64,000 bases of DNA from Nitrospinota bacterium (GTDB taxonomy: Bacteria; Nitrospinota; Nitrospinia; Nitrospinales; VA-1). Of this stretch, positions 30,001-33,000 are shown one piece after another. A program made the position numbers. How positions within the stretch are numbered: the stretch's first letter is position 1; the number at the start of each line of letters is the position of its first letter. The DNA lies in NCBI GenBank assembly GCA_038108555.1, contig JAYNIA010000003.1, forward strand, positions 8,108 to 72,107, in the 5' to 3' direction.

Positions 30001-33000
30001 TTTTCTTTTCAGAATCAACTTTCCCAAAGGTAGATTCATTTCGCAGTCGCTCCAGATTCTTTTCCGACATTTGCGAAAACAAATTTTTTTCGATCTGAAC
30101 AGGTTGAAGAGGTCCCATTTTTAGTCCTTATTTTTTTATTGTTAAATTAATTTGCAAACAACATACCAAATCATTTTTTTTGCCCACCATTTCCAAAAAC
30201 AAACATAAACCATTAAAAATAAAGGGTTTTTAAACCCTACAATATGGATGTATTGGAAGTGAGAGATTTGAAAAATGTGCTGAAAGGAAAAATTTTCCCT
30301 TTTTCTTCATGGGACTAGATGAGCTCGAGGCGAGCATGAAGAGCTCCTGAAGATTTTATGGCCTGGAGAATGGCAATCAAATCTCTGGGAGTTACGCCAA
30401 TGGAGTTAAGTCCCTGAACCACATCTCCCAGTGAAACGCTTTGGGGAATAAGCAACAGTTTATCTTCGCCTTCCCCTACAGAAATTCGGGTTCGGGGAAT
30501 GACAACCGTTTGGGCATTCTCTGGTCCAAGTGGTGGAGGTTGATCTGCGACAGGTTCTTCTTTAATTTGAACAAACAAGGCACCGTGAGCCACGGCAACC
30601 GCAGAAATCCTTACATTTTCTCCCATTACAACCGTACCCGTGCGCTCATCAATAATTACTTTGGCTTCGGAGTCGGGATCGACATCGATCGATTCAATTT
30701 TGGTAACCAAGTCAGAAGCATTATCTCTGTAAAATTCAGGAATTTTTACACGAACTGTTCTACCATCTTCCATGAAAGCAACCTCATCCTTCATATCATT
30801 ATTGATGGCTTTGGCAATTCGGCTTGCCGTTGTAAAATCCGTTTTCTTTAAAGCAAGAATGATTTCATTTTTTACATTAAAGTTGTATTTAATTTCTTTT
30901 TCGACCAATGCTCCATTAGGAATATGACCAACGGTCAAATGATTTTTCTGAACGCCCCGCGCCGCACCTTGCACACTAAAACCACCAATGGAAATAGGGC
31001 CCTGGGCAACCGCATACGTTTTATTATCTGGTCCTTTTAATGGAGTCATTAATAACGTTCCACCCTGGAGGCTTTTCGCATCACCTATAGAAGATACCGT
31101 AACATCAATATTATCCCCTTGCTTGGCAAAGGCTGGTAGATCTCCTGTTACGATAACGGTCGCAATGTTTTTGAACTGCAACTGTCCAATTCGATCACTT
31201 GGAATTGTGACTCCCAGTTTTTTCAGCATACTGGCAATAGCCTGGATAGAGAAAAACACGTTTACCGCACTATCACCAGTTTTTGTCAAACCAATCACCA
31301 GTCCAAACCCAATCAACTGATTGGAACGCACACCTCTTATTCCTGACAGGTCTTTAATTCGTGCAGCTTCCGCATATCCCGAAAGAAAAAATATTAAAGC
31401 CAGCGCTGCACAAAGTTTCGTTACAATTTGGTTTTTAAACATATTTATCTCAATTCTTTTAGTTACGCAGCAGACACTGTCAAAACAACAGCTCCTACAT
31501 CCCCGTTTTCCGAATCGGTAATGGTTATGGTTAAAGTTTGCGTTCCCAAAACACCTGGATCAGTAAATGTCACTGTTACCGTAGGATCGGCCACAGCTAG
31601 CGTTGGGAGCGTATAAGTACTCGATGAATTATTATTCGCAATAGTGGCAACCAGTCCATTGCCTGATCCACCCGTAACAGTAAATACCTCCGTTCCCCCG
31701 CCACTTTGTGCCGATGATCCGGGCCCAATGTTAAGTGGGTTTGGCAATACTTGAATGGTTGCTGTACTTGTATCCCCCACAGCATCTACAACCGTTACCG
31801 TTGCAGTTCCCGCTACCTGAGGGGCATTTTGATTAGATGTAAATTCACCTGTGGCTGAATTAATAGCACCAATTGTAGTATTGGAAAGACTCCAGGCTAC
31901 AGGAAGTGTTCCCCCAAAGGATGTAAATGTTAAAGTTCCACCCTTGTTTACCTTTCCCGCTGACGGACTAATGACCACACCTGAGTTTGAAGGGCCAAAA
32001 GGATTTCCCTCTTCTAAAGCTCCTTCACAGGCAACAATAAATCCTATAGCCACCAAAAAACAGAGGACCCATTCTTTTTTCAGGGTTCTTTCTTTTCTTA
32101 AAAATTTATTGAAATAATTTTTCATAAAATAATTAAGGGTTTAAATAATTGGCACCGCAGTTGTTGCGCTGACATTGTCAACAGTTGCTGTTACAAAGGC
32201 CATTCCCGTAACCGTCCCTGAAGTAAGAGTAGTTACCGCCGTACCAGATCCATCAGTAGTCAATGATGCCGACCCAAGCGTGCCCAGGGTAGTCGTCAAA
32301 GTGACTGTTGCGCCAACCGTAGGAATATTTGATGAAGAAAAAACTTCAACGCGAATGGTTGCCTGACTTGCTCCATCATTTTGAATTCCGGCCCCACCGA
32401 ATATGCCCTGGATTCCTATAGTATTTCCTAAAGAACTTGGGCCCGTTAGGTCCTCAACAGCCGCCTGGCAGCCAATGAAAATGACAACTGCAGCAATAAT
32501 TGAAATAGAAACAACTTTAAGATGTCTTATATAATTCATACTTTTTAAAAGGGCCAAATTTTGCTAAAAACTTTCGCCAACCAACCTTTTCTTTGTTCAT
32601 CAGCGACAACACCTTCTCCTGTATAACTTATCGAAGCATCAGCAATTAAAGTTGAAGGAATTGTGTTATCAAAGTTGATATCCTGAGGGCGTACGACACC
32701 TCGCAAAACCATAATTTGCTCTTCGTTATTAACCGTTACCGACCGGCGACCCTCAATTTTCAGATTTCCACTGGGTAAAACTTCTGTAATGATGGCGGAA
32801 ATGGTTGCCGTCAAAGTTCCATTTCGGGTTACGGTTCCTGTTCCCTGCATTGAGTTTGCAATCGTTGCATTCACCGATGGGTCAAACTGGGTTCCCATAT
32901 TTAGGAAATTCTGAATTCCCAAATTGGAAGGTAAACCCAACACATTGGGTGCCTGCATATTTACAGTGGTATCTTTTGCAGTATTTGTCGTTGCCGATTG

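Follow-up and report, generated by a model that had tools for sequence, protein, structure and literature searches.

What do two small lipoprotein genes do between the gene of the flagellar L-ring, flgH, and that of the P-ring, flgI? This arrangement, which we call X and Y, was analysed in a 64-kb stretch of DNA from a Nitrospinaceae genome (hereafter the window), whose close protein and DNA relatives carry the names Nitrospina and Nitrospinaceae. The first-pass annotation had proposed that the two products are additional parts of the outer-membrane or periplasmic ring system of the flagellum.

The locus and its two Ig-like proteins

The genes form the run flgF-flgG-flgA-flgH-X-Y-flgI-flgJ-flgN-flgK-flgL on the minus strand (Table 1), with intergenic gaps of 5, 15 and 20 nt at flgH/X, X/Y and Y/flgI, respectively. 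The presence of two Ig-like lipoprotein genes between flgH and flgI, as annotated, is confirmed by the coordinates, by an invariant lipobox cysteine and by the Ig folds described below. The base composition of the X/Y region resembles that of the neighbouring genes, and a promoter scan (23 vs 25.4) and a terminator scan (14 vs 10.4) gave counts at chance level. The same genome also has fliF, fliG, fliH, fliM, flhA, motAB and flgE, FlhF- and FlhG-like genes, a sigma-28-like gene, several flagellins of about 285 aa, and lpxC. Which of the two rod genes is flgF and which is flgG we take from gene order and from motifs known to us.

Table 1 Features of the flgF-flgL run, in window positions
Feature	Positions	Strand	Evidence
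X (P0001), predicted lipoprotein of 132 aa, from ATG	32141..32539	-	profile and AlphaFold2 fold
Y (P0002), predicted lipoprotein of 220 aa	31463..32125	-	AlphaFold2 fold
flgH, L-ring protein, lipobox Cys25	32545..33273	-	PF02107, 7.6e-58
FlgH hairpin-tip loop, residues ~108-131	32881..32952	-	co-variation with X/Y presence, one clade
flgI, P-ring protein	30315..31442	-	PF02119, 2.7e-135
flgA, P-ring chaperone	33273..34010	-	PF13144, 8.3e-25
flgG, distal rod	34018..34806	-	Flg_bb_rod match
flgF, proximal rod, opens the run	34847..35635	-	Flg_bb_rod match
flgJ, 147 aa, rod-binding domain only	29675..30118	-	PF10135, 3e-16
flgN, flgK, flgL, downstream end of the same run	25897..29671	-	

Among other flagellar loci, tandem short flagellins (~285 aa, some apparently broken) lie with flaG at L150:9480-15447 (G000:C28), a further flagellin lies next to flgM at L152:6239-7408, and the flhF-like gene behind flhA is apparently split into ORFs of 150 and 240 aa at L147:12583-13799 (G000:C17). 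Immediately upstream of flgF, window positions 36352-42312 hold three large plus-strand ORFs (358, 425 and 1155 aa), which we take to resemble nitrite oxidoreductase subunits; ORFs of equal size adjoin flgF in the related loci L032, L063-L066 and L068.

Protein X consists of a signal peptide, the lipobox Cys24 (codon 32468-32470), a short GPS-containing tether and a Big_1/Invasin_D3 Ig domain at residues ~37-132. The Pfam values of the first-pass annotation were reproduced: X gave Invasin_D3 at E 7.8e-11 (42.8 bits, cut-off 33) and Big_1 at E 5.2e-8, the latter below its cut-off. The AlphaFold2 model of X (pLDDT 85) aligned with intimin 1f02 over 90 residues (Z 13.9, rmsd 1.4), and the stalk domains of intimin and invasin match it, so that X is an Ig-like beta-sandwich by profile and by fold. 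The lipobox cysteine is invariant in all 48 aligned X, which represent 48 of the 50 positive genomes, one X split over contigs and one partial X being left out. In comparison with 1,291 generic Big_1 repeats, the flagellar X exhibits a conserved set of residues: E65 (94% vs 4%), G51 (94% vs 3%), N122 (100% vs 18%) and R63 (81% vs 18%). R63 and E65 alternate with core hydrophobic residues along one strand and would be exposed at the surface.

Protein Y exhibits a signal peptide, Cys33 (codon 32027-32029), a GPS-containing tether, a Big_2-type domain (~49-128) and a second Ig domain (~129-220). Its Pfam value, BiPBP_C at E 4.8e-4, is below cut-off and was likewise reproduced. The AlphaFold2 model (pLDDT 89) aligned with the Big_2 domain of 7quz over 75 residues (Z 12.3, rmsd 1.1) and with Leptospira LigA 8gyr over 154 residues (Z 10.3, rmsd 8.2), LigA being its best Foldseek match too, and it also matches intimin residues 121-195 of 1f00; Y is thus Ig-like by fold, and Big_2 is over cut-off in Y homologues. 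The lipobox cysteine is invariant in 44 of 44 complete aligned Y, and for both proteins lipidation is predicted from the lipobox pattern. The orthologues of Y have one (122-128 aa), two (200-232 aa), three (294-321 aa) or five (433 aa) domains. The best Y homologue of G106 (L090:8081-10222) has eight domains in 713 aa and no clear lipobox, and lies behind nusB, away from flagellar genes. An unlinked lipoprotein of 147 aa in G011 (L098:4694-5137) carries the Y-type C-terminal domain only.

Neither X nor Y gave a Pfam match to PF13992 (YecR, searched to E 0.1), FlgT, FlgO, LPP20 or TPR, or a match in PHROGs, and among the fold-search matches listed for both there was no flagellar chain or known flagellar accessory, the top ones being Ig folds. 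A FLgD_tudor match on X (E 0.0065) was below cut-off and was disregarded. The GPS tether was considered as a flagellum-specific signal and found unsupported, being absent from the X of families f5 and f6, while similar Pro-rich tethers followed by Big_1 are present in non-flagellar lipoproteins.

X and Y share their folds with the stalks of adhesins (intimin, invasin, LigA). They might be small Lig/intimin-like surface adhesins or coat lipoproteins, placed under flagellar control for attachment when the cell is motile and making no contact with the motor. We consider this rather unlikely. The X domain is also the repeat unit of giant surface proteins, where it occurs up to 54 times, the repeat number of Y varies as in an adhesin stalk, and one Y homologue has no flagellar genes near it, all of which agree with an adhesin. 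On the other hand, neither a lectin nor any other tip domain was detected, and X within flgH/flgI loci is always a single domain, in a fixed slot, in six families. Lig proteins carry Big_2 domains in tandem and are lipoproteins, and the architecture of X/Y resembles a short Lig; X matches the intimin Big_1 (Z 13.9) and Y matches Big_2, 1f00 residues 121-195 and LigA. Unlike intimin and invasin, X/Y have neither beta-barrel nor lectin tip, comprise 1-5 domains only and lie within a flagellar operon; a full-length intimin match reached 24 bits against a cut-off of 1400, for proteins of only 132 and 220 aa.

Distribution, loss and selection

In a single-protein search of the 102 genomes of the order, flgH was found in 74, flgI in 72, X in 50 and Y in 48. 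An X profile found the same 50 genomes, every X lies directly behind flgH, and the profile search detected no X orthologue away from flgH in the order. The earlier figure of under a third of the order was therefore an undercount. Of the flgH genomes, 24 are devoid of X: in two the locus is truncated at a contig end, and in 22 flgI adjoins flgH directly; X is present in 50 of the 72 resolvable flgH genomes and in 0 of the 28 genomes devoid of flgH, in two of which the Y profile gave weak matches (E ~1e-4). In 28 negative genomes, the gap between flgH and flgI contained no relics of X or Y. The absence of X from non-flagellated genomes is what is expected for any gene within a deleted operon. 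Neither X nor Y is needed for a flagellum, since 22 of the 72 resolvable flagellated genomes lack both, and we regard them as accessory, in agreement with the first-pass view that they are not a core part.

The insertion had been described as almost confined to Nitrospinales, and this has to be widened: among the 18 genomes of the class outside the order, 11 have flgH and 4 of the 18, from two other families, have X next to flgH or flgI. G102 and G105 have the order flgH-X-Y. Family f6 is rearranged with X still before flgI, as X-flgI in G106 and as Y-flgF-G-A-H-X-flgI in G107, where Y stands directly ahead of flgF. Seven flgH genomes of the class (families f7 and f9) have no X. Side features of these families (L071, L074, L091, L093, L097, L099-L102) are a FlgA of ~325-365 aa in f5-f9 vs ~245 aa in the order and, in f9, a FlgH devoid of most of the hairpin-tip loop. 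The non-flagellated G104 of f5 (L075:8958-9664) has two adjacent Big_1 ORFs of 114 and 112 aa upstream of TPR and PilZ genes, perhaps one lipoprotein gene split in two; they encode a distant X-like protein in a different gene context.

When one genome per species was scanned with a single 9-residue pattern, which distant orthologues in other phyla may escape, 24 of 34 stretches were confirmed, each of the 24 lying next to flgH and/or flgI. In a metagenome scan, 13 of 290 stretches were confirmed, consisting of 7 orthologues and 6 unrelated Big_1 proteins; six of the seven orthologous loci lie beside flgH/flgI and the seventh is too short. L128, from a bin labelled Saprospiraceae, was rejected as a true outlier: it carries a Nitrospinaceae-type flagellar operon whose genes are mostly 54-85% identical to those of the window (FlgG 85%, FlgH 75%), and the contig is probably mis-binned.

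Flagellar-protein trees of 79 genomes, and a second tree of 26 chosen genomes with FlgH excluded, trace the pair back to the common ancestor of the order and families f5/f6. The losses number at least four (genus g12; g4; g5 except G038; g18, g20 and g22), and the loss lineages keep flgK and, where checked, flagellins. Over 11 pairs, several of them with dS > 1, dN/dS was 0.06-0.19 for X, 0.06-0.31 for Y and 0.03-0.16 for both flgH and flgI. These values indicate purifying selection on both proteins, X being about as constrained as FlgH. Taken with the tree placement and the losses in which flagella were kept, they lead us to read X and Y as ancient and selected, yet optional.

In the negative genus g20 (L061:6400-7023, L062, L063, L103), flgI is followed by the gene of a FlgO-like lipoprotein (PF17680 at E 1.8e-4, below cut-off), with which the operon closes, flgK being elsewhere. 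This protein was rejected as a replacement of X/Y, a 57% identical orthologue existing in a non-flagellar setting in the window genome, which is X/Y-positive (G000:C4:56835-57416). LPP20 proteins were rejected as a complement to X/Y as well, occurring in 21 of 102 genomes, in both positive and negative groups.

The same data bear on the reading that X and Y are unrelated passengers, which landed once in the operon and were inherited along with it. One ancient origin would account for all positive genomes, the X and Y trees largely track genera, and there were at least four losses. We nevertheless hold this to be highly improbable, in view of the strong purifying selection, of the retention of Y at the operon after it had moved in G107, of the co-variation of FlgH described below, and of the lack of any X orthologue in the 28 flgH-less genomes, including G047, a 98% complete genome with decaying flagellar genes. 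In the latter (L068, G047:C10:138000-156000), the flagellar operon contains fragments of flgF, flgI and flgL; flgH, flgK, X and Y were not found in this genome, and one flagellin match has an internal stop.

Co-variation of the FlgH hairpin tip

Three of the loss lineages, g12, g4 and the negatives of g5 (8 genomes), are interleaved with X/Y-positive genomes. Their union as one clade was rejected (p-AU 1.1e-7, FlgI+A+G+K+F), and the X/Y-positive G038 is the sister of the g5-negatives (support 100/100). FlgH has 8 columns common to the three loss lineages and absent from the interleaved positive genomes. In a control built after the signal was found, exclusive shared columns were counted for all 20 trios of the six interleaved lineages: in FlgH the trio of the negatives comes first with 8 columns and that of the positives second with 7, and the next trio has 3. 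The same two trios score 0-1 columns in FlgI, FlgA, FlgG, FlgF and FlgK, in which the g5-negatives with G038 and G044 form the top or tied trio.

Six of the eight columns hold derived states, and five columns (112, 115, 127, 128 and 129) lie in one loop, which corresponds in alignment to the hairpin tip of FlgH from Salmonella (7bgl) and Vibrio. P115 and G127, conserved in positives and changed in losers, are replaced identically in g12, g4 and the g5-negatives; in the order's remaining positive genomes, P115 is universal (44 of 44) and G127 nearly so (43 of 44). FlgH Cys25 is invariant in 50 of 50. The correspondence has its exceptions: the X-positive g24 has G at position 115, and the X-negative f7/f9 retain P115. 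In the fourth loss (g18, g20 and g22; f4, 14 genomes), 1 of 72 conserved FlgH columns is changed, no more than in other genes. As a separate observation, G001 (L044:6482-7997) has two diverged full-length flgH in tandem (247 and 236 aa) directly before X, both carrying the positive-type tip loop and possibly giving a mixed L-ring.

The FlgH signal comes from one clade, and its source could be a flgH allele that was linked to the deletion and spread laterally; the five parallel changes in three lineages may reflect such spread instead of convergence. The adhesin explanation accounts for them in this manner, the deletion allele having recombined along with part of flgH. In its favour, residues 141-242 of FlgH are somewhat closer between g4 and the g5-negatives (74-78% identical) than between the g5-negatives and G038 (70-73%). 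Against it, FlgI, which is equally close to the deletion, has no such signal, the g12 FlgH between the loop and the deletion exhibits no excess likeness to the g5-negatives (58-62%, compared to 61% to G038), and third-codon identities gave no sign of a transfer.

The same linkage and co-variation would also be expected if X, with Y, were a transient assembly factor for the folding, oligomerisation or pore opening of FlgH, as FlgA is for FlgI, outside the finished motor. The loss lineages would then have altered the FlgH tip so as to assemble unaided, and the tip loop does gain charge in the f1 loss lineages (mean of 3.0 residues vs 0-0.64). The authors of the YecR study, in the part of their paper available to us, proposed lipid remodelling during assembly for that protein (10.1101/2020.12.05.413195). 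We find an assembly factor very unlikely all the same: Y, a repeat protein of variable length, is unlike a chaperone, the 14 f4 genomes have lost X/Y with no such FlgH change, and the Salmonella L-ring is described, in the accessible text, as forming without YecR (PMC11756786).

Putative role and relation to known motor accessories

The first-pass annotation had considered operon position the sole link to the flagellum. To position are now added the restriction of X to flgH genomes, its retention through rearrangement and the co-variation of FlgH in one clade, and the case for a tie to the L-ring is better than positional, for what is a real, selected, lineage-specific gene pair. On balance we favour, with somewhat more belief than doubt, the reading of X and Y as lipid-anchored accessories in the outer membrane, optional and sited at the Nitrospinia L-ring, a putative collar in which X would be the adaptor and Y an arm of variable length. 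The two would be made together with the rings and exported as lipoproteins. X would dock on or beside the membrane-facing tip of the FlgH hairpin through its conserved Ig face; Y, held by its own lipid and tether, would join X and project one to five Ig domains. Such a collar could brace the membrane around the rotating rod and the hook base, as proposed for YecR and FapH. The residues that X retains and generic Big_1 repeats seldom have, and the lack in the order of any YecR match or of an FlgT_M match over cut-off, speak for this reading.

The proposal of a collar or disk comparable to FlgP/FlgT/PflA is partly supported: the tie to the flagellum is strengthened, a structural role in the rings is putative, and a periplasmic disk looks less likely than an outer-membrane part. 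[quoted passage not shown] In the accessible reports, the topmost FlgH helix of Salmonella binds lipid A of the outer leaflet, with YecR attached to the outside of each FlgH (10.1101/2020.12.05.413195), and in V. cholerae the FlgH hairpin loop touches the membrane (10.64898/2025.12.02.691832). We lean towards X/Y facing the cell surface, because the co-varying loop tops the ring and because folds such as those of X and Y are usual in surface stalks. A bolder form, which we consider unlikely, is an extracellular Ig-fold collar atop the L-ring, in which X would cap the hairpin tips of FlgH at the outer leaflet and Y would provide arms of tunable length around the hook base. If true, it would be a flagellar ring of adhesin-stalk domains outside the cell, a motor bushing joined to surface attachment or shielding, dropped repeatedly with the L-ring tip remodelled to match.

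The closest known counterpart is YecR of Salmonella and E. coli, described in the accessible text as a small single-domain lipoprotein forming a belt on the L-ring, one per FlgH, under flagellar control (10.1101/2020.12.05.413195, PMC11756786). Its position outside the L-ring is the role proposed for X, which is also a small, single-domain, predicted lipoprotein; X differs by its intimin-type Ig fold, its place inside the flgH operon and its repeat-bearing partner Y. PF13992 matched in none of the order's 102 genomes, while the E. coli control was detected. That X/Y would be lipoproteins under flagellar control, as YecR is, is suggested at sequence level by the invariant lipobox cysteine and the tight operon spacing. 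FapH (HP0838) of Helicobacter pylori, as far as its report was available, is an accessory lipoprotein whose gene shares an operon with a motor gene; it forms an outer-membrane ring near the hook base and guards the membrane barrier (PMC11756786). X/Y are likewise predicted lipoproteins sharing an operon with motor genes. FapH is described there as restricted to Campylobacterota and belongs to a sheathed flagellum with a FlgH that is no lipoprotein (PMC11756786), whereas FlgH here retains its lipobox.

The Vibrio H-ring (FlgT, FlgO, FlgP) and the Campylobacter basal disk with PflAB are lineage-specific additions around the LP-ring, whose link to the outer membrane is provided, according to the available text, by the lipoproteins FlgO and FlgP (10.64898/2025.12.02.691832, PMC12222027). 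X/Y are similarly a lineage-specific pair of predicted lipoproteins at LP-ring genes, but are all-beta Ig proteins, whereas FlgP and FlgO are alpha/beta folds in the same sources (10.64898/2025.12.02.691832, PMC12222027). The accessible part of one report also mentions an unassigned density analogous to YecR in the C. jejuni motor (PMC12222027). FlgT_N and LPP20 gave no match in the window genome, and FlgT_M was over cut-off in 0 of the 102 genomes of the order. LPP20 served as what we take to be a proxy for FlgP. X and Y are probably lipoprotein motor accessories of a known class, with a fold that we did not find described in that role.

Among known marine nitrite oxidisers the Nitrospinota host group is the most abundant, and its motility has received little attention. 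Terms for flagellum or motility are absent from the main text, as available, of three Nitrospinota papers (PMC10839748, PMC13768755, 10.1101/2020.06.09.141952). Our search found no published description of X or Y; it lay outside most subscription journals and all supplements, the latter of which may list them as hypothetical proteins.

Flagellar motors differ mainly by the accessories around the LP-ring. The accessory examples in the accessible parts of the papers cited above are from Proteobacteria and Campylobacterota, and an Ig-fold pair would be an independent way of anchoring the motor in the outer membrane. The natural pairs of X/Y-positive and X/Y-negative genomes, one of them within a single genus, together with the five residues of the FlgH tip, make this idea directly testable.
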